DNA of 64,000 nucleotides from an uncultured virus (IMG/VR IMGVR_UViG_3300027851_001141). Lineage: Duplodnaviria; Heunggongvirae; Uroviricota; Caudoviricetes. Positions 40,073 to 64,000 of the stretch are shown piece by piece. Both the position numbers and the translations under genes were made by a program. Location: IMG/VR virus record IMGVR_UViG_3300027851_001141; one strand, 5' to 3'. The notes under the pieces were generated by a model. That model saw only the letters and a list, made by a program, of their open reading frames with translations. It was not told the DNA's origin and did not search any database. Position 1 is the first letter of the stretch; the number at the start of each line of letters is the position of its first letter.

Positions 40073-40531
40073 TCACTTCGAACCCAGAGAAAGAGAGTCT
40101 TTCTTCTTTTGCTCGTCAATCATAGCCTGTAGGTCAAACGCGAGGCGTCCTAGAGACTCAAGTCCCTCTTCGGATAGAATCTGATAACCGATTATCTTGG
40201 CCTTGTCTTCAATCTGACGTGCGGTCATTTTGGTGGCGCACATACCTCTGCAGCACCACAAGAGGTTGTTGCTGGACTGGAGGAAGTACACAATGTGTTT
40301 GTAGGAACTGTCGTTATCGCACGAAATGTACGTGGTTTCTTCTACCTCTTCCCAATCTTCCGCAAGCATATTGCTCAGACTCATTATGTAAGGTTGAATC
40401 TGACCCACAGTTGTCACTTCCATGATATCTCTGGCATCATGAGACAACATAAGATGCGTTCTGGTGGGCCAGATTTTTCTGCGGATCTTATATCCATAGA
40501 GTAACTTCTTTAACGCGGCTTCGATTTTCAT
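40073..40531 (-). CDS. DUF2829/Tad2-like protein (paralog of 44353-44835)
   Basis: AALKKL..G.KIRR..W...MLAEDWEEV. Confidence 0.65.
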   Translation of the reverse strand: MKIEAALKKLLYGYKIRRKIWPTRTHLMLSHDARDIMEVTTVGQIQPYIMSLSNMLAEDWEEVEETTYISCDNDSSYKHIVYFLQSSNNLLWCCRGMCATKMTARQIEDKAKIIGYQILSEEGLESLGRLAFDLQAMIDEQKKKDSLSLGSK

Positions 40532-44352: not shown

Positions 44353-44835
44353 TCACTTCGCGCCTGAGGAAAGAGAGTCTCTCTTCTTCTGTTCTTCGAT
44401 CATGACTTTTACGTCAAAAGGAAGTCTAGTAAGAGAACCAAGCGTGTCCTCCGTCATCGTGCTGTATCCAGCGATACGTATTCGTTCTTTGATTTGATAG
44501 ATGGGCATTTTAGTAGCGCACATAAAGCGACAGCACCACAAAAGAGCCCCCGCGTCTTGCAGGAATTTTACCACATACTTGTATGCGTTGTCATGGTCGC
44601 ACTCGATGTATGCGGTTTCTTCTACTTCTTCCCAGTCTTCAGCGCACAGGGCGTCCATCTTGATCTTATACGGATGCTGCTGGTCCACCCCGTCAGACTC
44701 CATAAGAGTCTGGCCATCGTGATACAGGGTGAGATACACTTCGGCAGGCCAAGATATACGTCGAATCTTAGATCCTGACTTGAGCTTTTTTAGGGCGGCT
44801 TCGATTTTCATGTCTGATCCATCAGTAGAATTCAA
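44353..44835 (-). CDS. DUF2829/Tad2-like protein (paralog of 40073-40531)
   Basis: MKIEAALKKL..G.KIRR..W..AEDWEEVEET..LWCCR.MCATKM shared. Confidence 0.65.
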   Translation of the reverse strand: MNSTDGSDMKIEAALKKLKSGSKIRRISWPAEVYLTLYHDGQTLMESDGVDQQHPYKIKMDALCAEDWEEVEETAYIECDHDNAYKYVVKFLQDAGALLWCCRFMCATKMPIYQIKERIRIAGYSTMTEDTLGSLTRLPFDVKVMIEEQKKRDSLSSGAK

Positions 44836-48667: not shown

Positions 48668-49036
48668 TCACAGATCCATCTTGGCTACGGCAAGAGCAAG
48701 CTTCCATCCGCGATCGGTAGGTTCAAACCGTGCGATAGGAGACCGAAACTTATCACTTACGGTGAAATGAGGGTCCACCACCTTCTGCAAGATGAGATTG
48801 CTGATGGTCAGGTTCGAATAGACCATGATCTTTCGCCCCTCGTAATTGGTGCAATCTAAATATTTCACTTCGACAACAAGGTGTCTTCCCACTTGCTGCG
48901 ACCTCAGAATCTCATAATTCAACGGGTCTGGATTACCCGGCGGGGAAACCCCCTGTGATGGTACGGTGATCGGCGGAGGAGATACGCTCTCCCCGTAGTA
49001 GTACTCCTCTTCACGACGAAATGGTCCGATTCCCAT
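48668..49036 (-). CDS. Conserved phage hypothetical protein
   Basis: NPDP.NY..., Y.DCTNYEG.KI.VY, DPHF, PIARF.PT..GW. Confidence 0.6.
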   Translation of the reverse strand: MGIGPFRREEEYYYGESVSPPPITVPSQGVSPPGNPDPLNYEILRSQQVGRHLVVEVKYLDCTNYEGRKIMVYSNLTISNLILQKVVDPHFTVSDKFRSPIARFEPTDRGWKLALAVAKMDL

Positions 49037-49066
49037 AAGTCCTCCTATTCAATAAAGCACCGAGGC

Positions 49067-49837
49067 TCACACCTCAGGCCACTCTTTTTTAGCGACAATG
49101 CCTAGCTTCTGTGCTCTGTCTTCGTACTTACTTTGAAGTACAGGTCCTAGCTCTTCCCACGTAAGTCGTTTCGAATCGAAGCTAGAATCCGGAAACTCTC
49201 CTACTTCACTCTCGTACAAACGTTGCCCACCTGTCTTACGCACCTTGGTCTCCAGAGCTTCATCAATGCCCTCCCTCAGAGCCAAGACCATATCCATTTG
49301 CATCCAGAGAACGAAATTTAGCATCTCCACAGAATGGGCACCGGAGTATTCGTACAAGAATAATCCTAGGACGTCCGTGTCTTCCTTTAGTACGAAGGTC
49401 TTTTTATTGATGACTCCAGAAGGAAAAGCTGCAAGAACTTTCTCAAAGCCTTTCTTAACTCTTTTCTCCGTCACTGCGTTTTCTTCTTTCTCGGGTGTGT
49501 GAATACACGGCACCGTGAAGGGAGAGGTATCTTGAAAGGCCTTAGTCTTGCCTTTCCACTTAGCTACTTCGATCACAGCTTCGTGCATCGCCTCCACAAG
49601 TTTCTCTTCACTCTCTTGAGTAGATCCTACGACCCGATGAAGTGTAGGACATGCTACCGACCCGTTGGGGTACGCGATGACTGAGCGGTCAGGGTTCAGC
49701 TTTTCCTTGAAATACAGAACCATAATGTCAGAGGCCTCTAAATGAGAGTGAAGTGGAGATTCACGAACCCACCCGTAGCTCTGCGGTGCGGGCACTCTCT
49801 GAGTAATTCGCTTCAACATTTCGTCGTCGATTTTCAT
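49067..49837 (-). CDS. Hypothetical protein
   Basis: 256 aa; AGGAG RBS and AACCC motif upstream. Confidence 0.65.
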   Translation of the reverse strand: MKIDDEMLKRITQRVPAPQSYGWVRESPLHSHLEASDIMVLYFKEKLNPDRSVIAYPNGSVACPTLHRVVGSTQESEEKLVEAMHEAVIEVAKWKGKTKAFQDTSPFTVPCIHTPEKEENAVTEKRVKKGFEKVLAAFPSGVINKKTFVLKEDTDVLGLFLYEYSGAHSVEMLNFVLWMQMDMVLALREGIDEALETKVRKTGGQRLYESEVGEFPDSSFDSKRLTWEELGPVLQSKYEDRAQKLGIVAKKEWPEV

Positions 49838-50067
49838 GCTGCTCCTTTTCCTGCACTATGTTCAGGGTTGAAACTTACTCAAAAGGTCACGCGCGGAAAA
49901 TACTTCCCAGAAAAAGGTTTAGGTCAGGAAATTCACCTACCCCCATTTTAAACCCCATACCCCTTCTCAGATTCTAAACTGGGAAAGGGTAATCCGGTAC
50001 CCCAAGTTCAGAAATGGAATTGGTATTACCAGTGTACGACATACACCTACCAACTTCCTAAGGTTCT

Positions 50068-50334
50068 CAGTTATCCAGTTCTCTAAGTTATCAGTTATCA
50101 AGTTACCATTTTCAAGTTTCCAAGTTACCGGGTGCCCGGAAAATCCAAAGGATTTTCCGGGCACATTTTAGGCCCGGAGGGTTTTTCACTGGATTTTTCT
50201 TTTAGAAAAATCCGAGATTTTCCACCGGGGAAAATCTCCCAGCAAAATATTTCCCGGAGAAATATTTTGGAGAGGGGGCCGTTGGCTTATTTTTCCGGGC
50301 CCGTATTTCCCTCCGGGGAAATACCTACCGGGTA
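50068..50334. repeat. Array of short direct repeats and five related palindromes at the GC boundary
   Basis: Inverted repeats at 50132-50164, 50191-50213, 50214-50238, 50243-50269, 50303-50324. Confidence 0.9.
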
Positions 50335-50354
50335 AATGTCAGGCCCTTAACGAA

Positions 50355-50385
50355 GAAAAGCCCCCCGGTTTCCGGGGGGCTTTTC
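50355..50385 (-). terminator. Intrinsic terminator (bidirectional-type)
   Basis: GAAAAGCCCCCCGG-TTT-CCGGGGGGCTTTTC. Confidence 0.85.
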
Positions 50386-50394
50386 GCTTGGTTT

Positions 50395-50847
50395 TCAGCC
50401 GAAGCTGAAAAGTGCTTCGAGTTCGGCGTCGATCTCGGAGCGCGTGGCGACCGTCGGAGCCGGAGCGGGGGCCGGGGTCGGCTTGGCCTTGGGAGCGGGC
50501 GCCGACTTGGGAGCCGGAGCGGCCGGGGCGCCGAGGTCCAGATCCAGATCGAACGAATCCAGATCCAGCGCCGGAGCGGGAGCGGGAGCGGGAGCGGAGG
50601 GTGCGGGTGCGTTCTTCGTCGGGCAGGTCCGGGCGTTGTGGCCCTCCTCCCCGCAAATGCTGCACTTGTACTTGCGCTCGCCCTCCGCCTCGACGGCCGG
50701 AGCGGGAGCCGGAGTCGAGGCCACCTTGGCGGGTTGCGTGACCGGCTTGGCCCCCTGGAACGCGGCCAGCGGGATCACCGCGTAACCGTTCTCCGCCAGA
50801 AGGTGAACCAACTTGCCGAACTGCTCTGCCGAAATCTTCATGATCAT
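50395..50847 (-). CDS. CCHC zinc-knuckle protein with Pro/Ala-rich linkers
   Basis: CSICGEEGHNARTC (CX2CX4HX4C); PAPAPA tracts; own promoter motif and terminator. Confidence 0.75.
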   Translation of the reverse strand: MIMKISAEQFGKLVHLLAENGYAVIPLAAFQGAKPVTQPAKVASTPAPAPAVEAEGERKYKCSICGEEGHNARTCPTKNAPAPSAPAPAPAPALDLDSFDLDLDLGAPAAPAPKSAPAPKAKPTPAPAPAPTVATRSEIDAELEALFSFG

Positions 50848-50902
50848 GATTCCTTTCTTGGCGAGGCGTCCCTCGCCTCTCGGATTCTACTATGGCCAGG
50901 GT

Positions 50903-51457
50903 TCAGGCGGTGGCCAGGACTCGCGAAAGGGTGGACGGCGGGAGAATGCGGGCGAGAACGTCACGAGTCAGAACGTCCCCGGCCTCGACAATCTTGCGAG
51001 CCCGGACCGGACCGACACCGGGCAGCTTTTGAAGTTGGCCGATCGAAGCACTGGCCAGGTTTTCGAGCGCCATCGACTCCCGCTTTTCAGCGTACCGATC
51101 CCAAACCGCACGAGACTTGCTCGGCGCCGATCGGGCGACCACGAGAAGCGGGGAAACCTCCCACGACGGACGATAGAAGGGAAGCGAGGCGAATGCCTCG
51201 AAACGGGAAACCTGGGCAGCCTGGCGAGCCTTTTCGGCCCGCTGACGCGCACGCTCTTGAAGCTCCGCGCGAGCTTCTTCGATGGCCACGATCTCTTCGA
51301 TGTCCAGATCGTCGTAGTCGACAGCCCGGAACACCGGGAACAGGAACGAGGAAAGCTCCGCCGAGTAAAGGCAGGCGATCGAAACCGCACAGCAGACGAT
51401 GACCATCGCCCAGCCGAAACCGTCCAGAAGAATCGCGAGAGTGTCGATCGTTTCCAT
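50903..51457 (-). CDS. Membrane-anchored helix-hairpin-helix (ComEA-like) DNA-binding protein
   Basis: N-terminal hydrophobic helix, coiled coil, C-terminal ASIGQLQKLPGVGPVRARKIV. Confidence 0.7.
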   Translation of the reverse strand: METIDTLAILLDGFGWAMVIVCCAVSIACLYSAELSSFLFPVFRAVDYDDLDIEEIVAIEEARAELQERARQRAEKARQAAQVSRFEAFASLPFYRPSWEVSPLLVVARSAPSKSRAVWDRYAEKRESMALENLASASIGQLQKLPGVGPVRARKIVEAGDVLTRDVLARILPPSTLSRVLATA

Positions 51458-51558
51458 GGCGCCCACTTCTTTCTGGCCAGTCACACCGGCCAAGGTTTGA
51501 ATCTGCCGACTAATATGGCCAGGGTCGGAACGCAGAAGCCTAGGAACGAGTTAAACGG

Positions 51559-51592
51559 GAAAAGGGCCCCCGGTTTCCCAGGGGCCCTTTTC
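51559..51592 (-). terminator. Intrinsic terminator
   Basis: GAAAAGGGCCCC-loop-GGGGCCCTTTTC. Confidence 0.8.
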
Positions 51593-52009
51593 TCACGCCG
51601 CCTTCCGCTTGGCCAGCGCCGCCGTGACCTTGGCGGCGTAGGCCGCCGCTTGGGCGTAGACCGTCGCCGCGACGTGCGGGTCGAGACGGCCGACCGACGA
51701 GGCGAGACACACCGCCCCCGCCTCGGGCTTCGGGTTGAACTTGGCGGTGCCGTCCGACTGGACCACCCACCGGGGCAGCGCGTTCCCCTTCGCACCCTTC
51801 GAGACGAAGCACCCGCTCACCGCGATGCGCATCGGGCCCTTCGTCCCGTCCTCGGCGAGCACCTGGCGAAGCGACGCCGCGAAGCTCTCGACGCCCTCAC
51901 CGGGGGCACCGACGAGCGATCCATCGGCGGTCGAGACGTGGAAGACGAGCACCTTGCTGAGAACGAGGTCGCGGGCGGGGTCGTACGAGTTCTTGTTGTT
52001 CTTGGCCAT
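51593..52009 (-). CDS. Hypothetical protein
   Basis: AGGAG RBS; own promoter motif and terminator. Confidence 0.65.
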   Translation of the reverse strand: MAKNNKNSYDPARDLVLSKVLVFHVSTADGSLVGAPGEGVESFAASLRQVLAEDGTKGPMRIAVSGCFVSKGAKGNALPRWVVQSDGTAKFNPKPEAGAVCLASSVGRLDPHVAATVYAQAAAYAAKVTAALAKRKAA

Positions 52010-52683
52010 GATTGTTTCTCCTGTAGAGGTCGAGGCGTCCCTCGCCTCCCCTTCTACTATGAACAGGGTTGGTTTGGACACTTTTGACACACCTGCCCCT
52101 TAAGTGAGGGGCGGACGTGTCTTTTCACTCGGCGGGCCGGGTGACGTTTTCGGCACTCGGCGGAGGATTGAGACTCCCCAAGCGGGGCGCCTCGTTCACG
52201 ACTCGGGTTCCCCAATAGAGGATCCAAGCTGCCGGAGTACGTCCCCACACGTTCACGCAGAACGTGAACGCTAGGACGGAGACGATCACATACCACTTTT
52301 TCAAGGATTCCATGCGGCAAATGCCTCCTGCCATTTACTATTAGCAGGGTTTGATTCCACCTAATAGCCGATTGAAAGTTGGAAATAGGGGAAAGTCTCA
52401 CGTGAACTGGTAATACCAGTTGCACTTAAAGGTTACCTTAGTCGGAAAATGTTGTAATCATCTATTCACACTTTCGACCCTTTAAGTGAGGCAGCGGGTC
52501 AACAGGGGAAAACGGCCCTTCTCACGTGGAATAGCGGACAGGCGGCAGGTCAGGTTAAAAGGCAATGGCCCGCAAGCGGGCCTGAAAAGCTAGATTCTCG
52601 TAGCCACTGCGAGGAACGGTTAGTGACTATTAGAAATAGGTGTATCACTGCGAGGATTCTCGTAGCCACTGCGAGGATTAAAC

Positions 52684-52720
52684 GGAAATAGCCCCTAGGA
52701 AATACCTAGGGGCTATTTCC
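52684..52720 (-). terminator. Intrinsic terminator
   Basis: GGAAATAGCCCCTAGG-AAATA-CCTAGGGGCTATTTCC. Confidence 0.8.
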
Positions 52721-52730
52721 GGGTAGTGCA

Positions 52731-52916
52731 TCACGCCACCGACTTGATACGGTGGACGATGACGTTTTGGGTTCGGGCTCGAATCAGGAAGATCGCTTTG
52801 TCGATCTCTTCGAGATTCTTCTGAATCTCCTTTCTGCGATCCTCTCCCGCTCGAATCTGTGCCCGGAGCAGCTCACCCTTACGAGTGAGAAGATGACGAA
52901 TCTGATCGTTGCCCAT
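52731..52916 (-). CDS. Small coiled-coil protein
   Basis: GAGGAGG RBS then ATG at 52916, downstream of the promoter motif. Confidence 0.6.
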   Translation of the reverse strand: MGNDQIRHLLTRKGELLRAQIRAGEDRRKEIQKNLEEIDKAIFLIRARTQNVIVHRIKSVA

Positions 52917-53077
52917 GGTCCTAGCCTCCTCTTGGCATCTATTATGAAAAGGGTTCGTAGCCACTGCGAGAAATAGGGGTATCACTGCGAGGATTCTCGT
53001 AGCCACTGCGAGGAATCATTAGAAAGGGTAGGGGGTTAAACAGAAATAGCCCCTGGGTTGGTTACCAGGGGCGTATT

Positions 53078-53359
53078 TCAGGAAACCTTCTCGACCTTCT
53101 CGAAAGAAAGGCTGTCGAACTGGAGCCCGTGAGAAGGATCGGAGCAGCATCGAGTGTATTTCTCGACCAGCTTGAAATCCGGTGCGTGGGCTGCCAGAAC
53201 CTCAAGCACCTTCGCCTTCCGGTCCGGAAAGACGACTCCGAGGTTTTCCTCCCCATGAAACTTGGCCAGCTTGGCCAACCGGAATGCGGCCACGTGAGGC
53301 AGACCGTAATCTGCCTTCAACTTCTTTCCGAGCACCTTCCGATACTTGGCGAGAGTCAT
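53078..53359 (-). CDS. Small hypothetical protein
   Basis: AGGAGG RBS; promoter motif at 53384; terminator at 53043-53079. Confidence 0.6.
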   Translation of the reverse strand: MTLAKYRKVLGKKLKADYGLPHVAAFRLAKLAKFHGEENLGVVFPDRKAKVLEVLAAHAPDFKLVEKYTRCCSDPSHGLQFDSLSFEKVEKVS

Positions 53360-53440
53360 AGCTCCCTCCTTTCGTCTCCCTTTATTATGTCGAGGGTTGG
53401 ACTCGGGCAGCACGTGCGTTAAAAGGGCTTAGCCCCCACA

Positions 53441-53713
53441 CTAGGGATTCCACCTAGAGGGGAGGCTGTAGCCTTCGTCTTCTTCGTCGAAGATTTCTCT
53501 CCGCTCTTTCCGCGCTTCCTTCTCCGCTTTTCCACGCTCCGATTGAAGCCGGAGAGTGCGAATCTTGGAAGCGATGCGCTCCGCCCGGTGGTATTCCTGA
53601 GAGCAGATTTTACATCCGCACTCGATCACCGGGAAAGAGTATCCCTGAGAGCAGGGAGCGGAGAGAATCTCGGCGTGCTCGTTCGAGAGCTTTTCGATCT
53701 GGCGTTCGTCCAT
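53441..53713 (-). CDS. Small hypothetical protein with Cys motif
   Basis: GGAGG RBS; promoter motif at 53734. Confidence 0.6.
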   Translation of the reverse strand: MDERQIEKLSNEHAEILSAPCSQGYSFPVIECGCKICSQEYHRAERIASKIRTLRLQSERGKAEKEARKERREIFDEEDEGYSLPSRWNP

Positions 53714-54361
53714 GAAGCCTCCCTTCGAGATTTAGTATGAAAAGGGTTGCGGGGCTAGCTCACCCCATTCCTTTGCCCCACTTCTCGACCGCGTGTTCCC
53801 ACACTTCCGCGAGAAGGTAAATCCTACCCGCAACGTGCAGTTGGGGCACCGACTTTTCGTCCGGTTGCTCGTTTGCTTCCACCGGGGATTCGATGGTGTC
53901 GATCGCTTCTGCCCGGATGGCAACGAGGCGTGTGTTTTCCCGATTCAGCGTCCCGTCCCGCGAAACTTCGTTGTAGACCAGAAAGTGAATGATCATGGAA
54001 TCAACCTCGGGACAGGTTCGTACACCCGTCGCTTGATGTCTTCTTCGGTGTAGGCTGTCTCCCATTCCGGAAGAAACTCACACCGGGCCAGGATTTCCAT
54101 TCTCCGGAAATCTTCTCGCTCGTGGACCTCCGAAAGAACGTCCAAAAGCGCGTGGCAGGTTTCCGTGTCCTGGGAATCGAACATTTCCAGTTCCACGTGC
54201 TGCTGGCACTGGTAACTGTCTCCGGTCCAGTCGCACAGAAGCAGTGTGTAAAGTACGTGAATCATTATTTCCTCGTCCTTGGTACTTACTATGAAGTGGG
54301 TTCGTCTCGCAGCGAGGATTCTCGTAGCCGCTGCGTACTCCTGCGCGCATTAAACGACAAA

Positions 54362-54475
54362 AGCCCCACCTAGGTTTCCCTAGGTGGGGCTGGCAGGTAT
54401 GGACATGTAACCCAACTTACCTGTTACATAGAGGTACCCTCCTCCCGTCAGGTTTCTGCCGCGGTGGCCCTACCT
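54362..54475 (-). ncRNA. Candidate stand-alone small RNA/start-stop minigene (SD-ATG-TAA)
   Basis: Promoter motif 54476-54490, GGGAGGAGG-8 nt-ATGTAA (54424-54446), terminator 54362-54391; no ORF longer than a few codons. Confidence 0.6.
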
Positions 54476-54509
54476 ATTATGGGCAGGGTTTGCGGGCTAG
54501 GCTTGTGTG

Positions 54510-54932
54510 TCAGTAGGGTGAAGGATTCTCTCCGTCGGGAAGCCGGAATCCGTTTTCGGAAGCGAAGGCACGAAGACCAAGTTCGATGTCCCAATCGCTT
54601 GCCGCATCGTCGTGAATGCTTTGCAGCTCGGAGAAGAACTGCAAATCTTCGGCCGTCTCCGAATCGAAGCCGACCGCCTCGTTCAGCTCCCTTTGGACGT
54701 CCTCGTAGGGGGCATCTTCGTGGATCTTCTCCACGATTACTCCCTCGAAGCGGGGATTGTACTTCTCGTCGGAAATCAAGTGCCCAATGTTGCACTTGCA
54801 ACCGTTTCGCCCCCGGTACATCGGGCCTTCGACCTGACGTCTGCTGTATCCCAGGGAGAGCCGAAAGCCTTGGTACTTCATCCCGTTCCAGACCTTCGTG
54901 AAGATTTCCTGCTTTTGTTCGTGACTCAACAT
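54510..54932 (-). CDS. Conserved phage hypothetical protein
   Basis: YRG.NG.KC.IG.LI.DE.Y...LQ.IHD pattern; GGAGG RBS. Confidence 0.6.
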   Translation of the reverse strand: MLSHEQKQEIFTKVWNGMKYQGFRLSLGYSRRQVEGPMYRGRNGCKCNIGHLISDEKYNPRFEGVIVEKIHEDAPYEDVQRELNEAVGFDSETAEDLQFFSELQSIHDDAASDWDIELGLRAFASENGFRLPDGENPSPY

Positions 54933-55401
54933 CTTTATCCTCCCGTCAAGGGGCGACGACGTATCCATGAAAGTTCGAGGCGAAGAGAGCACCCCAAAAG
55001 AGCGCCCACGTCAGGAAGCGGCCACCGAGACGAAGCCTCGTTCTGCCAGACTGCGACAACCAGAAAGAAAATCCCGGCCGGAAGAAAATGGTTCATGAAT
55101 GGAACCAGCTTGGCGAGGTAGTACGTCCAAAGACCCACCGTCGCCAGGTTGGAGAAAAACTCCAGACCCGTCATTCCGTCCGCATCCTCGAACGGAATGT
55201 AATACACTCGGCCTTCCTTCGTACGAAGGACACGGTGCGTCTCGGTCTTGGAACGAATCGGAAGCTGCCAACGAGCGGTCATGATTCACCTCTTGGGTGT
55301 GAAAGGAATGGGCCGTCGTCGGCCTCGAAACCTAGTATGACCAGGGTTGAGTTTGGCTTAAACGAGAAAAGGCTCCCAGGAGTATTCCTAGGAGCGTCTT
55401 C

Positions 55402-55767
55402 TCAGGGAGTGTACTTCACGCCGAGAATCTCGATGTGCGTCGGGTAGTCCACCCACCGAAAGCTGATTCCGTGAGGCTTCTCCGCGTCGATCCACCGGAG
55501 AAATCCCCAGCAGAGCTTGCAGAATCGCGGCACGTTGTCTTTGGCGAGAGCCTCGTCCGAGAGCCGGAAATGGCGGCGAACACGCTCCAGATTCTTCTGG
55601 AGAACCTCTTTCAGCGGCGCTCCGGTTTGCGCACAGACCATGTCCTCGATTCCCGGAGTCGAAAGAGCGAGGATGTACATCCGCTCCACCTCGATCACCG
55701 TTCCCAGGTACACGTTGAAGTTCTCGTCATCGACCTCGAACGTGGAAGTCAGAAAGCTCTTGCCCAT
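55402..55767 (-). CDS. Hypothetical protein
   Basis: GAGGAGG RBS; promoter motif at 55791. Confidence 0.6.
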   Translation of the reverse strand: MGKSFLTSTFEVDDENFNVYLGTVIEVERMYILALSTPGIEDMVCAQTGAPLKEVLQKNLERVRRHFRLSDEALAKDNVPRFCKLCWGFLRWIDAEKPHGISFRWVDYPTHIEILGVKYTP

Positions 55768-55812
55768 GGGGTCACCTCCTCTTGGCTTTTACTATGGCCA
55801 GGGTTTAGATTA

Positions 55813-56397
55813 CTATTTGAGGTAGACGTATCCCTTGATACCCTCCTCCCGATATTCCGCGTAGCACTCCAACTCCGTCTTCATGGAATGCTTTTCCAGA
55901 AAGAGGCGTGTCTTCTCCTCGCTGCCGTTGCGAAACTTCGTGTGAGCGATGACCCTTTCGCTCCCGTCGGGATGAATCTCGAACACATGCACTTCGGTTT
56001 TCACATTCACCTCCCACAGAGGAATGTCGAGAACGAACGTGGAAAGCTCACGTTGAAACACCACCTGAAAGTCAGAATGGTGGGAAACAGCTCCCGAAGG
56101 AACATCGTAGACACGGATCAGAAATCCGTTGTCTTCCAGTTGAATCGTCTCATCCTCCGTAAACCACTCACAAAGTTGGTTCACCGAGTCGAAGCCGCAA
56201 ACCTCCCCTGCCTTCATAGCGTAACCGCTCGCAAAAGGTGTCGGATGGTAGGGACAGCCGGAGTGCCTACTCGAAAGGCTCAAAGTCATGTTCGACGACC
56301 TGTCGGACCGAGTATCCAAAAGTTGGTAGGGTCCAAATCCGTCCCTTTTGTGTTCGACTCGGTAGACCCTGCCGCCCAGCATAGCCAAGTCTTTCAT
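55813..56397 (-). CDS. Hypothetical protein
   Basis: VYRVEH..G.GPY..CGF.S..QL..WF phage motif; AGGAGG RBS. Confidence 0.6.
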   Translation of the reverse strand: MKDLAMLGGRVYRVEHKRDGFGPYQLLDTRSDRSSNMTLSLSSRHSGCPYHPTPFASGYAMKAGEVCGFDSVNQLCEWFTEDETIQLEDNGFLIRVYDVPSGAVSHHSDFQVVFQRELSTFVLDIPLWEVNVKTEVHVFEIHPDGSERVIAHTKFRNGSEEKTRLFLEKHSMKTELECYAEYREEGIKGYVYLK

Positions 56398-56810
56398 GTC
56401 GGCCTCCTTTCTCTTTCTATTATGGAAAGGGTTGCTTCGCTGCGAGGATTCTCGCAGCGGCTACGAGGAGGGTTAAATGGAAAATAGCCCGACGTAATAT
56501 TCCGTCGGGCTATTTTCAGCAGAAGGTGGTTCGACTGTGCCACAGTTCCGGATTGTGGCCGTACCCGTCGTGTCGGATGGGTTCTCCGTCCCCGTCGAGC
56601 GTGACGGGAGTTTCCTCGTCATCGGAGGGAGTGCTCGTGACGGTGTAGAGACACCATCGGTTTCCGGGACACCATCCCGTCAGGAACAGATTTCCGGCGG
56701 CGATTTCGACGGCGAACTCCTCGGGAAGCTCTCCGAGGAACATCGCCATCACGCCCTCATCTTCGGTCAGGTACCGCACCAAGTATTGTTTCGCCATGAT
56801 CTGTTTCCTT

Positions 56811-57029
56811 TCAGATGACGCCGTCTTCGATGAACGCACCGCCGCTGCGCTTCCACGCGGCGATCTCTTCTCGGTAGAGATCCGGATCGTACTCCAGATC
56901 GAAGTCTCCGTCCGAGAAGCAGTCAACGAAGTAGTTGACCACCGGGTCTTTCGTCTTCATGTTCGCGTCGTAGGCACGTTGGCAGAGGTCCAACTGTGCT
57001 TCCGTCAGAATGCTGAGGCTCAGATTCAT
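56811..57029 (-). CDS. Small acidic protein
   Basis: AAGGA RBS; directly downstream of the tRNA-like RNA. Confidence 0.6.
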   Translation of the reverse strand: MNLSLSILTEAQLDLCQRAYDANMKTKDPVVNYFVDCFSDGDFDLEYDPDLYREEIAAWKRSGGAFIEDGVI

Positions 57030-57056
57030 TGTTGTTTCCTTTCAGTGGAACTTCAT

Positions 57057-57142
57057 TGGTCGCAGGGGTAGGAGTCGAACCTACTTATTATCATCACACC
57101 CTTGGCAGGGAGAGCCCGGCTCATTTTTCGTGATGCCCTGCG
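57057..57142 (-). ncRNA. tRNA-like RNA with acceptor stem, T arm and CCA, but no D arm or anticodon
   Basis: CGCAGGG/CCCTGCG-A-CCA; GTAGG-TTCGACT-CCTAC; internal CATCAC/GTGATG stem enclosing two hairpins. Confidence 0.75.
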
Positions 57143-57796
57143 CTGCCCTTTCTATTATGTTCGGGGTTGCCTCACCAGCAGTCGAACACAACGTCCCTTT
57201 TCTCCAGATCCTCCACCAGCATTTCCTTTAGATCCTGCTCGGGAATGGCCAGAAGAGACTTCGTGTTGTGGCGAATCCAACTCTGGAATCCACCGGGAGA
57301 GATTGGTTGACCCAACGTGATGACGCACAAAACGTGAAAGTGAACGTACTTTTCCGGATCGTACTCGTCATCATTGGGAACGGACATTCCCTCTTCTTCC
57401 GCAAACCTCGCAATGGACAGGGGAAAGGCGAACATTTCTTTTCTCCTAGGCTGAGGATAGATAGAAATAGCCCGACGGAATATTCCGTCGGGCTATTTTC
57501 AGGTTCAGTCACTTGTGGTAGCGACGTTTGTCATCGGGATGCAGGACGAACGGGCCCTTGATTTCTGCGACGGACCCCAGGAAGAGATTTCCTGGTGAGG
57601 TGTTTCTCGCCACGAACTCGTTGAGACTCGCAGCGTAGTTTTTCCCGTGCTCTTCGGAGAATGGGCCCTGAATCGCACCACCTCGACAGTCGTGAACGTA
57701 AACGTCCATGTCAGCACCTCCTTTTTCGTTACTATGTTCGGGGTTCCATCTACTAAAAACGAAAATAGCCCGACGGAATATTCCGTCGGGCTATTT

Positions 57797-58102
57797 TCAG
57801 GCTGCCTTGGCGACTTCTCGAAGAGCGAAGCTCTTGAAGCTCTTGGCCTCGGCGATCTTGTTGGAGAGGACCGAGAGCTTGTGCCACTCGGCGAACGCTG
57901 CCTGGTAGGCGTCGGACGCCGCCGCGTGGAAGTTGCTTCCCATGGGATATTTCCGCATGGTGGCCGAGTGCTTCTCGACCTCGGCCCGCCAGTATTCCAT
58001 GGCGGGCTTCACGAAGACCACCAGCGTCAGGCCGATGATCTTGTCCGCCGTGAAGGTGCGGGTCGCTTCGCTGATGTTCTTGATCTGGGCCTTGATGTCC
58101 AT
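57797..58102 (-). CDS. Hypothetical Ala-rich helical protein
   Basis: AGGAG RBS; promoter motif at 58144; terminator follows. Confidence 0.65.
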   Translation of the reverse strand: MDIKAQIKNISEATRTFTADKIIGLTLVVFVKPAMEYWRAEVEKHSATMRKYPMGSNFHAAASDAYQAAFAEWHKLSVLSNKIAEAKSFKSFALREVAKAA

Positions 58103-58543
58103 GAGTATTTCTCCTGTTGAGGTGGACGGGGTGGTCGAGATTTAGTATGAACAGGGTTGGTTCGGCCAACACCTTCAATCGTCGCAGTAGAACGTGTAGA
58201 CTTCGAGGCCTCCGCCACGGAAGATTTCTGCTGCGTGTTTCTCGGTGAGGCCGACCAGGGTGCTTCCGGTCCAGAGCGCTGACTTATCCGAGGTCACGTA
58301 GGTCACCGTCCAGGTTGTTTCAGTGACGGCGCAGGGTTTCTCCTCGTTTTCGTGAACGCCGATCGTGAGAATGAATCCGCGGTCGCCGAACACTACGTCG
58401 CAGATTTTCTTCTCCTCCCTTTCGCGTGACCCAAGAAAGTAGATCCTTGCCACCTTGTCAGGCCGATTTTCCCGGAGCCACTTCCACTTGGCGGAAGTTT
58501 CGGGGGCGGAGACGCTGCTGGTTCTGCTCGCCATGGATTTTTC

Positions 58544-59023
58544 TCAGTCCGGAAGAGAAGAGAGCGCCTCCGCGATGGCGGCGCGGTTCTTTGCCAGCTT
58601 GGACAGTTCGTCTTGGATGTCCATGTAGAGAATCGAGGTGGGCCCCACCAGAGCACCGCCTCCCCCGAACTCTCCCGGTCGCATTTTGGAGCAGGTGTAG
58701 GACCACGTGAAAACGATGCACTCGTTGGGGCGGAACTTCTGGAGGAAATCCTGAAGAAGTCCAGCCATCACGTCGATTTGTCCGCCTTCTTCGCAGAAGA
58801 TGACCAGTTGGTTACCTTCCTTTTCGTAGTTCCACCCCCACCCTTCTTCACAGAGTTGCTTTTCGATATCTGTGAACTCGTGCTCTTCGTCGTCTTCCAG
58901 GAGCAGTTCGTGCTCTCCGCTGACGATGGCTTCGTACCACACCATCTTCTCGATGAGGAACTTGCCCTCCTCTTCGTTGCGAAGATCGATCTGGAACGAG
59001 CTTTGTTGGTAGTTGTTCGCCAT
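58544..59023 (-). CDS. Acidic hypothetical protein
   Basis: 159 aa; WSYTCSK.RPGEFGGG motif; RBS present. Confidence 0.65.
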   Translation of the reverse strand: MANNYQQSSFQIDLRNEEEGKFLIEKMVWYEAIVSGEHELLLEDDEEHEFTDIEKQLCEEGWGWNYEKEGNQLVIFCEEGGQIDVMAGLLQDFLQKFRPNECIVFTWSYTCSKMRPGEFGGGGALVGPTSILYMDIQDELSKLAKNRAAIAEALSSLPD

Positions 59024-59036
59024 TATTTTCTTCCTT

Positions 59037-59348
59037 TCAGTGAATGAATCCTTCGCACCCGATCACTCGTCCCTCGGAATCCCGAACGAGACGACCCGGA
59101 GAAACCAGGTCCACTCGGGGCGAAGTTGCCTTCACCACCGCCGAGACGATGTAGAGCACACCATTTTCTTGCGGCGGAAGACCCTCAACCGCTCCTATTT
59201 CGGAGCGGTAGATCGGAATGTTGTCGATGACGTCCACACACTTTGTGAACTGTTCCACCCTTGCGCATCCCTCGGAAGGAAAGGTTTTTTCTTCCGCCTC
59301 TCCGTTGAAGACGACGATGGTGTGAGGGGTGAGGTTGATGAATCTCAT
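59037..59348 (-). CDS. DUF1874-like viral protein
   Basis: INLTPH.I, PS.G.ARV, GLP....YIVS..V, RD.EG.VIGC. Confidence 0.7.
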   Translation of the reverse strand: MRFINLTPHTIVVFNGEAEEKTFPSEGCARVEQFTKCVDVIDNIPIYRSEIGAVEGLPPQENGVLYIVSAVVKATSPRVDLVSPGRLVRDSEGRVIGCEGFIH

Positions 59349-59352
59349 TGTT

Positions 59353-59826
59353 TCACTCCGGGAGAAGGCCGAGCACTTTACGAAGAAGTGACCGGGGGCT
59401 GCGCACCGAGATTTTGTCTCGGAACGAGTCATTCGGGTTCCTCGACGCGATCCACTGGTCTTCGTCGTCGAGGTAGTCGGGACAGAGATTGTGGCACTTG
59501 CCCTTTTCGATCATGAAGACGACCTTCGCAGCGAGCCACTCTTGAACGGACTCGTATTCCGTTCGGTCGTACTTCTTGCGATAGTCCCAGGACGCCTTCT
59601 CGGGGATGACCAGGAAGTACTCTCCTTCGGGAAGAAGAGCCTGGATGGCCTGAATGTCCCCGAGGTCGAGGTCACCCCATCCGATTTCCACTCCGAGTCG
59701 GTTGTACCACCGGGCGTTGTGGAAATATTCCTTCGCCCTGATTTGCCCCTCTTGAAGCATGAACTGAATGTCCATGCTCGGATCGTGCTGGAATCGATCG
59801 AACATTCGTGCGGTGAGTAGCGACAT
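59353..59826 (-). CDS. Hypothetical protein
   Basis: HNA.WYN..G..IGWGDL motif; AGGAGG RBS; promoter motif at 59848. Confidence 0.65.
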   Translation of the reverse strand: MSLLTARMFDRFQHDPSMDIQFMLQEGQIRAKEYFHNARWYNRLGVEIGWGDLDLGDIQAIQALLPEGEYFLVIPEKASWDYRKKYDRTEYESVQEWLAAKVVFMIEKGKCHNLCPDYLDDEDQWIASRNPNDSFRDKISVRSPRSLLRKVLGLLPE

Positions 59827-59897
59827 TGGCCACCTCCTTCCCCCTCTATTATGTCCAGGGTTGTGTCACTGCGAGGTTTCTCGCAGTGACGAAGGCG

Positions 59898-60323
59898 CTA
59901 GTAAGCCCAATCATACGCCTTAAGGGAACCGTCTTTTGAGTATCCCACCTGACAACAATCTACTGAGAAAGCCCAATCGGGCAGGTTTGCCCACTCGCCT
60001 TCATAAGGGCTGATGTATTCCATAATCAGCACAGGTATTCCCAAACTTTTGGAAATTTCATCGTTGTACCCACACCGAGCTAGCCAATGTTTTTGGGTTT
60101 TCCACGTAGAAGATTCGTAATAGTTTGCCTCGAATCCGTCCGATCCCTTGGGCAACTTGATCACGAAATCATCGTTAAGGCGAAAGGCCACACGGTTACG
60201 GCCTTCTCCTATGGGTTCTCCGTAAAGTTCTTTTAGCTTTTGAAAGGCGACTTCTACTAGCTTTTCTAAATCTTCTTCGGTTTCTACCTGAACTCGGTGT
60301 TTGGTATTCTTTCTCAGAATCAT
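59898..60323 (-). CDS. Minimal protein-kinase-like protein
   Basis: IGEGRNRVAF..VIKLP..N..E..LIMEY..QVGY...YDW. Confidence 0.5.
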   Translation of the reverse strand: MILRKNTKHRVQVETEEDLEKLVEVAFQKLKELYGEPIGEGRNRVAFRLNDDFVIKLPKGSDGFEANYYESSTWKTQKHWLARCGYNDEISKSLGIPVLIMEYISPYEGEWANLPDWAFSVDCCQVGYSKDGSLKAYDWAY

Positions 60324-60392
60324 ATTACCGCCATTAACGAAGAAAGAGCGCACGGCCGTGCAGTTAAAAGGCCATGAGGACCAGGTTAAACG

Positions 60393-60429
60393 CCAACAGC
60401 CCCCTAGCTAACTGCTAGGGGGCTGTTGG
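60393..60429 (-). terminator. Intrinsic terminator-like hairpin
   Basis: CCAACAGCCCCCTAGC-TAACT-GCTAGGGGGCTGTTGG. Confidence 0.7.
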
Positions 60430-60633
60430 GCTTGTGCAGCATATCCACAAGGTGGGCCATGCATCTTTCGACTGGCCTTTCGCTTGAAGACTTGGCGATT
60501 CTCCATTAGCATTTCTGCCAACTTCTACGTTTCGTTGCTCCTCAAACTACCGAAATACCCTTGTCTACGAGCATAGGGGAAACGCTCTGTGACGCTCTAC
60601 CTTTCTCGCTAGCACTCGTGGTATTTCTAAGGG

Positions 60634-60706
60634 TGGGACCGGCGGGACTCGAACCCGCGACCGATGGATTAAAAGTCCACTGCTCTACCAACTGAGCTAC
60701 GGTCCC
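60634..60706 (-). tRNA. tRNA-Lys(TTT), CCA not encoded
   Basis: GGGACCG-TA-GCTC..GAGC-A-GTGGA-CT-TTT-AA-TCCAT..GCGGG-TTCGAGT-CCCGC-CGGTCCC-A, followed by CCC. Confidence 0.95.
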
Positions 60707-60787
60707 AGAAGTGGACACCCGAGGTGCGGGTCGGGTGTCCACGGAATGACCTAGAGGGAAAGGAGGGGAAACCTCTAGGTCACGTAT

Positions 60788-61033
60788 TCACTTCTTGGGG
60801 ATCGAGAGGAAGCGTCCCTTGGGGTCGCGGAAGGTCGCCCCCTCGGCACGGGCCTTCCGGAACGCGTCGCCGATCGAGACGGCGACCTTCTGCTCGACCT
60901 GCGTCTCCCGGTAGGCACGCATGTTCTTGCGCTCTTCGTTGCGCTTCACCTTCCGCTCGTGACTTCCGAGGATCTTCGGAAGACGAAGGCGGAGTTCCTC
61001 GGGGGAGAGACGCTTGGCGTGAGGCTGATTCAT
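60788..61033 (-). CDS. Small basic protein
   Basis: GGAGG RBS; promoter motif at 61078; RDPKGRF motif. Confidence 0.6.
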   Translation of the reverse strand: MNQPHAKRLSPEELRLRLPKILGSHERKVKRNEERKNMRAYRETQVEQKVAVSIGDAFRKARAEGATFRDPKGRFLSIPKK

Positions 61034-61212
61034 GATTATTACCTCCGGTGTGGCCGTCGTGGCCGGTGACTCACTTTACTATGGACAGGGTTCGACCTAC
61101 TTGAAGATTCCTTCCGGGCAACGGAAGTGTCGGTCGCTCACTTTGCCACGGAGACGGATCGTGTAGACCCATTCCCCGCACAGAAACGTTCGTCGCTTTC
61201 GTCGCTTGTTCA

Positions 61213-62638
61213 CTATTCCTCCTGGGCCTTGAGGAAGGCCTGGTTCACGCGGTCCAAGATTTCCTCTTCGGTGTCTCCCGAATCCCAGCCAGGACAAGGT
61301 TCGCAACGGTCGGCATCCACCAACTTGAGAATGAAATCTCTGGCGTCGGCGTCGAGCGTGGTTCCTACCGAAGCGTACACCACAGTGTTGCCACGAAAGA
61401 AAACCCACAAGTCGTGCTCTGGTTCCGCTCTCGAAACCTCTTGGGGAAGGACACCATCGATGTAGTGCCAGTCCGTGATGACTCCGTTCCTTTGAAGGTT
61501 TTCAGAGAGAGCCTCACTCACGAGGTCTTCCGGTGCCTGCTCCTCTTCGATCTCGAAGAGAATCGAAACGTTTGCTCTGTAGGTTACCTTGGCCATTTCA
61601 CGCTCCGTGAGCCTGCTCGACCTGGCAGGTTTGCTCTCCCTTGGAAAGCTCTTTGCAGATCCAGTAGCACCTTCCGTAGTCGCATTCCTCGGAAGCGATC
61701 ACCGAAACTCCGGTGATGTTGGCGATCTGCGCCGCGAAAAGAATCGAGATCGGATGCTTGTTCACCCAATCCGTTCCTTGACAGTCGGGATGTTCTCGAA
61801 GGACTTTGAGAGCCTTCTCGAAGGAGTAGATGACTCCGCTCAAGTTGCTCGCACTCTGCACGTCCAGAGCGGCCTTCGCCGCCTCTTGCAAGGTCTTCAT
61901 GATCATTCTCCTTGTGGTTGCTGAAACCAGAACTCTTGAGGCAGGGGCTCACCCGTGTAAATGTCCCACAGCCATTCTCCGTCCATGCCTCCCTTGCAGA
62001 TTCGTACGAGTCCGTACTCGTCCACGGGGATCTCCTCTTTCGCACACCTGCTCTCGAAGAGCTGGTCGGCGTCCCGGCGGGAGTCGGCCTGAAAATAGTA
62101 GCCGTGACTCCCGTCGTTGTGCTCGTACATGAAAGTGTACTTCATGATTCACCTCACATATGACGTGCAAGCGCCAAGGCCGACGCCCGACGCCAATGCA
62201 ACGACGCCCGTCTCTCCCAAAGAAAGGTCACGGCCGCAATCAGCTCTTGGCGGATTTCGTCCGAGCAACTGATACGCTCACACACAAGTGCCAGTTCGAC
62301 GTGGAGTGTCTCAGCCTCTGCGCGGTTGACGATATCAGCGGCTAGGCGGGAGATAGTCAGAGTGGAGAGCAGCATAGTGTGTTCGTAGGTGAAGGTGTAC
62401 TTCATGGTCAGAACCGATCGAAAGCGTCGAGAGCACGGAACACGTCTCCAATGTCGCTTCGCGTTACGACCTCGTTCCCGATGCAGAAGCCTCCGACGTT
62501 TCCATCCATTTCCGTGTCGGAAAGAACGCGGCCACAGAAGTCTCTGGCACTGAAAGCCAGGTTGGCACCGAACGTCCCGTTCGTGACGTAGTAGCCGTGA
62601 ATGGAACCGATGCGAGTGTTGGGGTTGATGACGATCAT
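61213..62638 (-). CDS. Operon of five small hypothetical proteins (61213-61596, 61598-61906, 61903-62145, 62154-62405, 62408-62638)
   Basis: Abutting ORFs downstream of the promoter motif at 62657; two begin MKYTF.YEH. Confidence 0.6.
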
Positions 62639-63149
62639 TGTTTCCTCCTGGCCTTTACTATGTTGAGGGTTCGTCTTTCCTTAAACGAGACAAGGCCCTT
62701 TCGGGCCGAGTCTCAGTCTTCGTGGTGAGTGAAGCCGAAGGTACCCACCTTGTTCCCGTTCGCATCCATGACGGGGAGGTCTTCGATGGCCCTGGCTGGA
62801 AGAGAGGTCATTTTCTCCACGATCTTTTCGAGAGACTCGATGATGTGGCGCTTGTAGCGCATGGCATCGTTGCCCATCGTGATCTCGACCTTGAACTTCA
62901 TGACTTCAACTCCATTTCTTCCACGTAGTAGTAGAATCGTTGGTGGTTTCGGGTGTCGGGGTGATTCGTGAGAGGGTGCCCACCGAAAAGCTTTTCCCCG
63001 TCCTCGTCGCAAGCCTTCTGTGCCGCTTCGTAGGTGAGGAACGCGCCCAGATAGGTGACGAAATTTGTCGGGGTGCTTCTCGGTCTTGGTCGCAACGAAG
63101 ACTTGGCGACAAGGCTCCGGCTCTGCCTCGGTCCCTTCGAGAAGGGACG

Positions 63150-63422
63150 TCACCATGCTCTGGATTCCGCGTACCAATTCATGAGAATGGCGGTGAGGTG
63201 TCCGTGAACGTCATAGATGGGATCGAGAAGGTCACCGTTTTCGTTGGTGACCTTCGTGATCTCCAGCACTTCGACGAGAGCCTTTCTCGCCTCGGGCCCG
63301 AAGATCGAGCCTGTCCAGAACTCGCCTTTCGCCTCGGCTCGTTCCTTGCTCTGTTCCAGAGTGAAGTCGATGGTCGCGATGACCCTCTCGATTTCTTTGC
63401 GAATGTCCTTGGGCTTGGTCAT
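63150..63422 (-). CDS. Small hypothetical protein
   Basis: AAGGA RBS and ATG at 63422, downstream of the tRNA-like RNA. Confidence 0.6.
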   Translation of the reverse strand: MTKPKDIRKEIERVIATIDFTLEQSKERAEAKGEFWTGSIFGPEARKALVEVLEITKVTNENGDLLDPIYDVHGHLTAILMNWYAESRAW

Positions 63423-63449
63423 GATTATTTTCCTTTCCTTTTGGAACAC

Positions 63450-63580
63450 TGGCCCCCTGGGATGGACTTGAACCACCACTTTCCTTACCTCGCATCGAAA
63501 GTTGCAGCTAACGATGCGAGACTGTGCTCTGCGTCTGCAAACACTTCGCACGGACGTTCTGCCAATTAAACTACCAGGGG
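63450..63580 (-). ncRNA. 131-nt tRNA-like RNA with canonical acceptor, D and T arms and CCA; anticodon arm replaced by two hairpins
   Basis: CCCCTGG/CCAGGGG-G-CCA; TA; GTTT-AATTGGCA-GAAC; GGTGG-TTCAAGT-CCATC. Confidence 0.8.
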
Positions 63581-63655
63581 ATAGGTGAAGCCTCATGGCC
63601 TCACCGTTTAGTATGAGCAGGGTTGCTCAATCCAACACGTCTTCCTCCAAGATCA

Positions 63656-63985
63656 TCAGTCTAGACAGTAGGAAAGTTTTGCCTTGACCTCTCGGCACAA
63701 CTCGAAGGGGTTGTCCTCCCAGCCTCCTGTGTCGTACTCGGTGCTGCACGGATAATCGTGCTCAGCCCCCACGAGAAGGTGGTCATTCTCGAAATCCTCC
63801 AACTTGGAGTAGAGGTCTTCGATTTCGTGGTCGAACTTGGACCACTTGGCGTAGAGGAACAAGAAGAGAACCCCCTGCTCGTGCTCGTACACCTCGTTTG
63901 CTTCCTTGAGGACCGGGTGATTACGCAACTCGTCCAGGGCTCGGCCCTTTTTGATTGCCAACCCAACGTCAGTTCGCGTTGACAT
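63656..63985 (-). CDS. Hypothetical protein
   Basis: 109 aa with AGGAG RBS. Confidence 0.6.
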   Translation of the reverse strand: MSTRTDVGLAIKKGRALDELRNHPVLKEANEVYEHEQGVLFLFLYAKWSKFDHEIEDLYSKLEDFENDHLLVGAEHDYPCSTEYDTGGWEDNPFELCREVKAKLSYCLD

Positions 63986-64000
63986 TCAAACTCCTTGAGG

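Follow-up and report, generated by a model that had tools for sequence, protein, structure and literature searches.

A promoter-to-terminator unit enclosing a start-stop in the modular early region of an uncultured jumbo phage

Architecture of the start-stop unit

The DNA analyzed here is a stretch of 64,000 nucleotides (nt) from an uncultured virus of the class Caudoviricetes (IMG/VR record IMGVR_UViG_3300027851_001141; the whole stretch is referred to as the window), and our subject is a short unit at 54362 to 54490, which is located in the 244-nt gap between two early genes encoding proteins of 160 and 90 amino acids (aa). The minus strand carries all genes around this unit. Within the gap, a promoter motif is followed by a Shine-Dalgarno (SD) sequence, an 8-nt spacer, an ATG with an immediately adjoining TAA (the start-stop), and a terminator hairpin of 13 base pairs (bp); all of these elements were read on the minus strand at the very positions at which an earlier note on this DNA had described them. 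This architecture of promoter, strong ribosome-binding site (RBS), start-stop, and terminator is real and is unique in the material examined.

The core of the promoter motif, CCCTNNNCATANT, occurs in 20 exact copies in the window, all 20 of them on the minus strand, compared to 0.42 ± 0.54 copies expected from shuffled sequences. A position weight matrix (PWM) derived from the exact copies retrieved 27 sites in the window, again exclusively on the minus strand (27 of 27), with 20 of them falling within 49.8–63.6 kb, and the promoter of the unit reaches a PWM score of 22.2 and matches every invariant position of the motif. A variant in which GATA replaces CATA (AACCCyGnnGATAnTA) is present in 64 copies, on one strand only, in a related viral contig of 392 kb (G003), where some copies precede tRNA-like sequence, as judged by eye and without a tRNA scan of that contig. 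The promoter is not sigma-70-like and represents a phage-family motif, AACCCTnnnCATAnTA; a scan of 49000–64000 for the sigma-70 pattern yielded 1 site compared to 4.7 expected. G003 encodes a sigma-70-family protein at 247425–247622 (minus strand), and no match to PF00562 (RNA-polymerase beta-type family) was found in it. It should be noted that an upstream CTAGCCC(C)GCAA (54491–54503 and 53749–53761, minus strand) is common to promoters 54488 and 53746 and absent from the others, which hints at a duplication of these two promoter modules.

A survey of the cassettes that follow these promoters agreed with the earlier note in that the other cassettes hold open reading frames (ORFs) or tRNA-type RNAs. 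In 19 of the 21 listed ORF cassettes, the distance from promoter to start codon is 12–57 nt, a range that includes the 44 nt of the start-stop ATG, and the promoter is followed by an SD, a start codon (ATG, or in two cases GTG or TTG), and an ORF of 50–300 aa. The two exceptions, at promoters 63624 and 57168, have long leaders containing RNA. The start-stop unit departs from this scheme: only for this one of the 27 pattern-matched promoter sites in the window was a full terminator found within 260 nt (ending at +128 from the promoter), the longest ORF before that terminator comprises 10 codons, and no other cassette has a promoter-proximal SD-ATG with zero codons. No comparable ORF-less unit was found among the 64 promoters of G003. 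A candidate at G003 promoter 70469, which would have suggested that empty cassettes are common, proved to be a composite in which promoter and terminator overlap before a 68-aa ORF, and it was dropped as support. At this site (70420–70470, minus strand), the 5' arm of the terminator starts directly after the promoter motif, recalling one subclass of the PeSL cassettes that are discussed below.

The RBS of the unit is ordinary for this phage. The duplex energy of its SD, calculated with a generic anti-SD, is −12.6 kcal/mol and ranks fourth among 22 cassettes, and the opening energy of the RBS (positions −14 to +5) is 7.3 kcal/mol, which corresponds to rank 12 of 20; by both measures, therefore, it resembles the RBSs of real genes. 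Moreover, since 7 of the 46 complete genes counted end in TAA (35 in TGA and 4 in TAG), TAA is a working stop codon here, and recoding of TAA as a sense codon was rejected, as the stop counts give no sign of it. When SD-ATG-stop arrangements were sought elsewhere in the window and in the relative genomes, they accounted for a chance-like 0–6% of SD-ATG sites, none had the architecture of the unit, and inspection by eye placed them mostly in coding-like sequence, with one or two just upstream of a gene start. Three GGA motifs were counted by hand in the unit, two of them inside the SD and a third at the loop of the terminator. Sponges for CsrA/Rsm proteins usually carry more than three such motifs, which are exposed in their hairpin loops.

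The terminator is among the three strongest in 49–64 kb, and its arm-to-arm duplex energy is −29.4 kcal/mol. Its tail belongs to a repeat family (D4) with 6 copies, and similar terminator tails occur in G003 (TTTCTCGTTTAA and TTTCATTTAA). The promoter motif begins 20 nt past the stop codon of the 160-aa gene, and neither a terminator scan nor the sequence itself revealed a terminator from the TGA of this gene to the promoter. Therefore, the hairpin would also have to end the transcripts of the upstream genes, and it would have a job that is independent of the short RNA. No competing antiterminator was predicted for it. An attenuator, in which the SD competes with the terminator, was also considered and rejected, as the best duplex between the SD and the 5' arm of the hairpin reaches only −15.8 kcal/mol compared to the −29.4 kcal/mol of the hairpin arms, and the co-transcriptional intermediate avoids it.

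The modular early region around the unit

The features of the unit, its neighbours, and the repeated elements of the region are compiled in Table 1. The 160-aa protein matches phrog_17693, a family of unknown function (7.7e-21), and has no match in Pfam, while the 90-aa protein has no match in either PHROG or Pfam. The promoter copy in front of the 90-aa gene (from 54302) differs by one mismatch and has a PWM score of 19.5 at 54300, and the SD that precedes this gene is weaker than that of the start-stop unit. The statement of the earlier note that the phage has Pth2 and IF-1 is borne out by matches to the corresponding Pfam families. Additional domains were identified further away, with Tad2-like (anti-Thoeris) domains in three proteins (36879–37472, 40073–40531, and 44353–44835, all on the minus strand), one of which is below the Pfam cut-off.

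Table 1. Features of the start-stop unit, its neighbours, and repeated elements (positions in the window; for each feature, the basis of the assignment or a remark is given)
Feature	Position	Strand	Basis or remark
160-aa early gene, upstream neighbour	54510..54992	-	ORF list; TGA stop 54512-54510
Promoter motif AACCCTGCCCATAATAG	54474..54490	-	exact match to CCCTNNNCATANT
5' leader, 27 nt	54447..54473	-	sequence
Shine-Dalgarno GGGAGGAGG	54438..54446	-	sequence
Spacer GTACCTCT, 8 nt, SD to ATG		-	sequence
Start-stop: ATG 54429-54427 and TAA 54426-54424	54424..54429	-	sequence
32 nt between TAA and terminator hairpin		-	sequence
Optional hairpin: ATGTAAC (54429-54423), 11-nt loop, GTTACAT (54411-54405)	54405..54429	-	sequence complementarity
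Possible end pairing of AGGTAGGG with CCATACCT, one mismatch	54475-54468 with 54402-54395	-	sequence
Intrinsic terminator hairpin, 13 bp (9 G-C), loop GAAA, tail TTTGTCGTTT	54362..54391	-	terminator scan
T-tract and family-typical terminator tail TTTGTCGTTTAA	54350..54361	-	repeat family D4
Operator-like imperfect palindrome and second promoter copy AACCCACTTCATAGTA for the downstream gene	54286..54339	-	PWM, repeat family D2
90-aa early gene, downstream, own promoter	53993..54265	-	ORF list
IF-1 homologue	5225-5443	-	PF01176, 5.7e-18
PTH2 peptidyl-tRNA hydrolase	17346-17765	-	PF01981, 6.8e-32
Palindrome CTGCGAG-N4-CTCGCAG, copies	52648-52665, 52985-53002, 54310-54327, 56440-56457, 59869-59886		
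Near-identical 45-nt terminators	56475-56519, 57458-57502, 57756-57800		
Shared terminator tails (about TTTTnTCGTTTAA)	52675, 53033, 54347, 56470, 60383		similar in G003

Repeats are a general feature of the region. Families D1, D3, D6, D10, and D11 consist of promoter plus SD, D2 of the palindrome, D4 of terminator tails, D5 of terminator-promoter composites, and D7 of the three near-identical 45-nt terminators, and the terminators here behave as repeated modules. The palindrome CTGCGAG-N4-CTCGCAG precedes several promoters, with 5 copies in the window compared to 0.19 expected, and is likewise found in front of promoters in G003. It may serve as the operator of a phage regulator or as a boundary element that forms a hairpin. 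Furthermore, the interval 52340–52730 (minus strand) has no ORF over its 390 nt, holds two terminators along with a 45–68-nt boundary repeat in two to three copies, and looks like a pile-up of cassette borders.

Two RNAs lie behind promoters of this type. A tRNA-Glu(UUC) at 63450–63580 (minus strand; promoter 63624) has a 47-nt intron in its anticodon loop and a hairpin in its 5' leader; it was missed by ARAGORN at default settings, was found with the intron option, and scores 40.1 bits with the Rfam tRNA model. The second, a tRNA-like RNA at approximately 57056–57150 (minus strand; promoter 57168), is located upstream of a 72-aa ORF and combines an acceptor-type stem (GCAGGG/CCCUGC), a T-arm with GGTTCGACTCC, and a 3' ACCA with a long and irregular middle, and it was called by neither ARAGORN nor Rfam.

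Folding and conservation of the unit

Without its terminator, the 83-nt body of the RNA folds with a minimum free energy (MFE) of −26.3 kcal/mol. Dinucleotide shuffles give −25.2 ± 3.1 kcal/mol (z −0.35), and 174 of the 500 reach a fold as good as that of the body. The whole RNA has a z of −4, for which the terminator accounts. The earlier note had drawn attention to two pairings, one between ATGTAAC and a downstream GTTACAT and one between the ends of the RNA. The first pair is indeed complementary in sequence, but the AUGUAAC/GUUACAU hairpin reaches just −5.9 kcal/mol on its own and is not part of the MFE structure of the whole RNA, which pairs the GGAGG of the SD with the CCUCU of the spacer. 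Likewise, the ends can pair with one mismatch, but the MFE structure pairs the 5' end in another register.

Searches for known RNA families were negative at the unit. Rfam 15 returned nothing at the gathering score, and in a sensitive scan of 54250–54520 the best hit, located on the terminator, had an E-value of 0.7. ARAGORN found no tRNA or tmRNA at the unit with the intron option on or off, and no T-loop motif was seen by eye in its sequence. Moreover, when the cassette sequence and its complement were sought elsewhere in the window and in the relatives, just matches of 11–13 nt were obtained, which is the chance level.

The phage lacks cultured relatives: for 53900–55100, no nucleotide match was found among cultured phages, and the best cultured match to the helicase of this phage has at most 27% identity. 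Four IMG/VR contigs (G001 to G004) are related to the window via the helicase (65–78% identity; 75% amino-acid identity for G003). The DNA of G001 is approximately 70% identical and ends short of the early region. G003 has homologues for 9 of the 45 early ORFs of the window, at 33–56% identity and in shuffled order, and none of the two genes that flank the unit. The cassette itself is absent from G001–G004 according to both blastn and short-word blastn, which gave a few identities of 11–16 nt in coding-like sequence; a 16-nt identity in G004 (CCTCTATGTAACAGGT) and the GGGTACCTCT that recurs there lie in coding-like sequence without SD or promoter and were put down to chance.

Neither the 160-aa nor the 90-aa protein matched any viral contig, and the 160-aa protein had no match in metagenome contigs. 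For the 90-aa protein, metagenome and genome contigs gave only a match in a metagenome-assembled genome of Verrucomicrobiia (48% identity over 33 residues) and two similar contigs, which lack the promoter motif and were considered false positives. Furthermore, exact searches of viral contigs for a 23-nt cassette pattern and for the terminator and palindrome patterns returned none, and a 138-aa early protein, used alone and as a two-sequence alignment, matched G003 only.

Closer relatives were found among public sequencing runs, 24 of which, from 17 studies, share 5–97% of the sampled words of 52000–57000; none of these is recorded as RNA, and four runs were compared in detail with the window. 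An RNA-labelled run (X21), which is probably DNA, contained nothing on the stretch and is uninformative about expression. The first contig from run X2 spans 53700–54439 with 27 substitutions (3.6%). Over 54358–54439, which includes ATG-TAA, the differences listed for X2 are an additional base within the terminator loop and a single change to the tail, with one further substitution of this contig unplaced, and the terminator stem is kept. The second X2 contig spans 54462–54811, includes the promoter, and has 31 differences; among the few of these that are listed, 7 nt are deleted immediately before the promoter. The two contigs leave a gap at 54440–54461, which corresponds to most of the SD. 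Because approximately 3 changes are expected in the 82-nt stretch at this divergence, the retention of the 3' part of the unit in X2 is not significant.

A different picture was obtained from run X5, in which a single contig of low depth matches 54268–54357 and then continues with 139 nt of unrelated sequence, starting with a different terminator hairpin on the same tail. The mosaic junction at 54357 is thus located within the terminator tail, i.e., within a repeated boundary element. The 90-aa gene is covered by contigs of X2 and partly of X5 with few differences, and run X13 covers neither the cassette nor its borders. The earlier note had looked to relatives for either a conserved SD-AUG-UAA or an intact ORF at this site; X2 keeps the unit, X5 has different sequence there, and no ORF-bearing version was seen.

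Known systems and possible roles of the unit

Lambda bar and related minigenes have one or more sense codons and act through drop-off of peptidyl-tRNA and starvation for the tRNA concerned. AUG-UAA yields just fMet-tRNA, which release factors hydrolyse. The unit resembles lambda bar in that a phage carries a mini reading frame preceded by an SD and a link to peptidyl-tRNA hydrolase has been proposed, but in contrast to bar it has zero sense codons. As there is consequently no peptidyl-tRNA to drop off, the bar mechanism cannot operate at AUG-UAA, and the analogy to bar and Pth drawn in the earlier note is mechanistically weak, given how bar minigenes are defined. The presence of IF-1 and PTH2 is real but does not bear specifically on AUG-UAA. 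For minigenes, a tRNA-sequestering mechanism has been described (PMC2490762).

Closer in form are the Start-Stops of Escherichia coli, of which Meydan et al. 2019 (bioRxiv 10.1101/520783) describe 14 sites, revealed by retapamulin ribosome profiling and located out of frame within protein-coding genes. They were found to bind ribosomes by toeprinting and in vivo, and when the yecJ start-stop was removed, the host ORF was expressed approximately 16% more strongly (bioRxiv 10.1101/520783). Since no peptide can be made from a start-stop, any role it has must be regulatory. Like these sites, the unit has an SD-like sequence and a start codon followed by an immediate stop (54429–54424); unlike them, it stands alone between its own promoter and terminator. 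Nor is it nested in or upstream of an ORF that it could modulate, as the terminator follows shortly after the TAA (32 nt) and the unit contains no ORF of more than 10 codons. Eukaryotic start-stops in 5' untranslated regions, such as the AUGUAA of Arabidopsis NIP5;1 and human cases, gate the main ORF or trigger decay (PMC11915504, PMC13338717, bioRxiv 10.1101/2021.07.26.453809). The phage unit shares with them an AUG and an immediate stop, i.e., an elongation-free stop point for ribosomes, but differs in that no ORF follows on its transcript. In the limited collection of literature searched, no stand-alone trans-acting start-stop RNA was found for bacteria or phages.

With regard to the neighbourhood, the closest parallel is provided by the PeSL cassettes of T4-type phages. 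As described in two papers (PMC2839356, PMC4122927), the plastic regions of these phages contain small early ORFans bordered by repeated composites, each of which comprises a stop codon, a terminator stem-loop, a promoter, an SD, and a start codon. Recombination between such composites inserts, deletes, and replaces small early genes, and close relatives differ accordingly. Similarly, small early genes in the window are bordered by repeated composites that combine a terminator stem-loop, a promoter, and an SD. However, its promoter does not follow the host sigma-70 consensus, an operator-like palindrome is added, the start-stop unit carries no cargo, and the phage is not a T4 relative, as the low identity of its helicase to cultured phages indicates.

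Against this background, we tentatively favour the explanation that the unit is a real early cassette of the mRNA type without cargo or dedicated function, most likely left behind when a small ORF was lost in module shuffling, and we give this explanation a little less than an even chance. The promoter would fire early and produce an RNA of approximately 110 nt ending at the terminator, where transcripts reading through from the 115-aa and 160-aa genes upstream would end as well, so that the terminator would be kept for the sake of those genes. Ribosomes would bind the SD, place fMet-tRNA on the AUG, and be released at once at the UAA, and this immediate stop would keep them out of the terminator stem. 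A small early ORF would have been lost in a region where relatives differ by module replacement, and the sequence would be explicable without a dedicated trans-acting function. We infer that the unit is transcribed, that it binds ribosomes, and that an ORF was lost from it; the cargo-less cassette is supported by generic parts, the lack of a structural or family signal, a mosaic neighbourhood, a terminator with a job apart from the short RNA, and the precedent of the PeSL cassettes for gain, loss, and replacement of small early genes through modules. Several points weigh against it. ORF-less units are rare, with 1 among the 27 promoters of the window and no clear second among the 64 of G003, and since such a unit was found once, there is no pattern of decayed cassettes to lean on. 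The promoter, SD, and AUG are undecayed, and the 3' part including ATG-TAA is kept, albeit not significantly, in X2. A stop codon directly after the ATG is expected in approximately 3 of 64 cases (about 5%) after a random deletion. Moreover, an RNA product would not be foreign to the region, as the same type of promoter drives the intron-containing tRNA-Glu and the tRNA-like RNA. Finally, an ancestral ORF-bearing version was not seen among the relatives compared.

Some of these points are also those that speak for a purpose-built start-stop RNA, an abundant early RNA that would recruit 30S/70S ribosomes via its strong SD and cycle them through initiation and immediate termination. It would thereby sequester ribosomes, initiator tRNA, initiation factors, or RF1/RF2, or use up fMet-tRNA, in the service of host takeover or translation tuning. 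Such an RNA appears unlikely to us, and it is rather unlikely that this giant phage expresses a stand-alone SD-AUG-UAA RNA that drives an elongation-free cycle and acts on translation pools in early infection. It is suggested by a promoter and a terminator that enclose just SD-AUG-UAA, an arrangement unique among 27 promoters, by the high rank of the SD (4 of 22) with optimal spacing and normal accessibility of the RBS, by the unit being kept in the approximately 96%-identical relative X2, and by the IF-1, PTH2, and tRNAs encoded by the phage. The low probability (about 5%) of a stop right after the AUG points in the same direction; this argument is weakened, as the unit was picked for its oddity from a very large scan. 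However, conservation reaches no further than one close relative, the cassette being absent from G001–G004 and the site being different in X5, and SD-ATG-stop sites elsewhere occur in coding sequence at chance-like rates. A single SD per RNA would also make a poor sponge, the phage needs the same ribosomes, and the link to PTH2 is weak, as AUG-UAA makes no peptidyl-tRNA. The Start-Stops of E. coli cut both ways, as they do bind ribosomes and the effect reported for yecJ is small, at approximately 16% (bioRxiv 10.1101/520783). Thus, of the proposal in the earlier note that the unit is a dedicated RNA, what stands is a separate ORF-less unit from promoter to terminator with a strong SD and unlike the other cassettes. 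The role of a decoy or sponge attached to it found no support, as the RNA is no more structured than expected by chance, matches neither Rfam nor tRNA models, lacks a homologue in G001–G004, and has an ordinary RBS, and as no family-wide start-stop cassette exists in the material compared.

It is distinctly unlikely that the unit encodes a regulatory small RNA that acts by base pairing or protein binding and in which AUG-UAA is incidental. This possibility includes a tRNA-like variant, in which the 5' AGGTAGG would pair with CATACCT and enclose three hairpins, and a G-CCA would come next, directly ahead of the terminator. The unit is an independent transcription unit with the size of a small RNA and has neighbouring promoters that drive RNA genes, which is consistent with this possibility, as are the end pairing of 7–8 bp (one mismatch) with the GCCA that follows and the three possible hairpins between the ends. 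Yet the body folds no better than shuffles, neither a tRNA signal nor an Rfam match was obtained in a sensitive scan to E 10, the T-loop motif was not seen by eye, and matches or complements in the window and relatives are confined to the chance level of 11–13 nt. In addition, if CATAAT is the −10 box, the 5' pairing strand would lie at or before the transcription start. A cis-acting boundary element, whose extra promoter would add read-through into the 90-aa gene or whose start-stop ribosome would shield the 3' end of the upstream operon, is improbable. Upstream transcripts would contain the unit, as no terminator lies between it and the 160-aa gene, the promoter of the 90-aa gene is a weaker variant (PWM score 19.5 compared to 22–33), and composite terminator/promoter boundaries are the rule in the region. 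Nevertheless, read-through should be low, given the 13-bp terminator of −29.4 kcal/mol and the lack of a predicted antiterminator, and no other boundary in the window or G003 is built alike. Very improbable, finally, is a micro-ORF recently lost to a nonsense change at its second codon. If the TAA is read as sense, a 19-codon frame ends with TAG in the 3' arm of the terminator, and this frame is indeed open for 17 codons past the TAA, but it would cross the terminator stem, and X2 appears to have the same TAA, as no change there is among the differences listed.

At the least, the unit is a clean oddity, and the modular early region in which it lies is newly described and belongs to a lineage of uncultured jumbo phages. 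A dedicated decoy is possible but unsupported. If it is a cassette without cargo, the unit is of descriptive value, as it documents PeSL-like shuffling of promoter, operator-like, and terminator modules in uncultured phages of approximately 390 kb from freshwater, wastewater, and soil metagenomes, and it provides a clean promoter and terminator consensus for the annotation of such genomes. If it is functional, it would be, to our knowledge, the first stand-alone trans-acting start-stop element and would represent a new means by which a virus influences the translation apparatus of its host, in the form of a 130-nt cassette that is directly testable.

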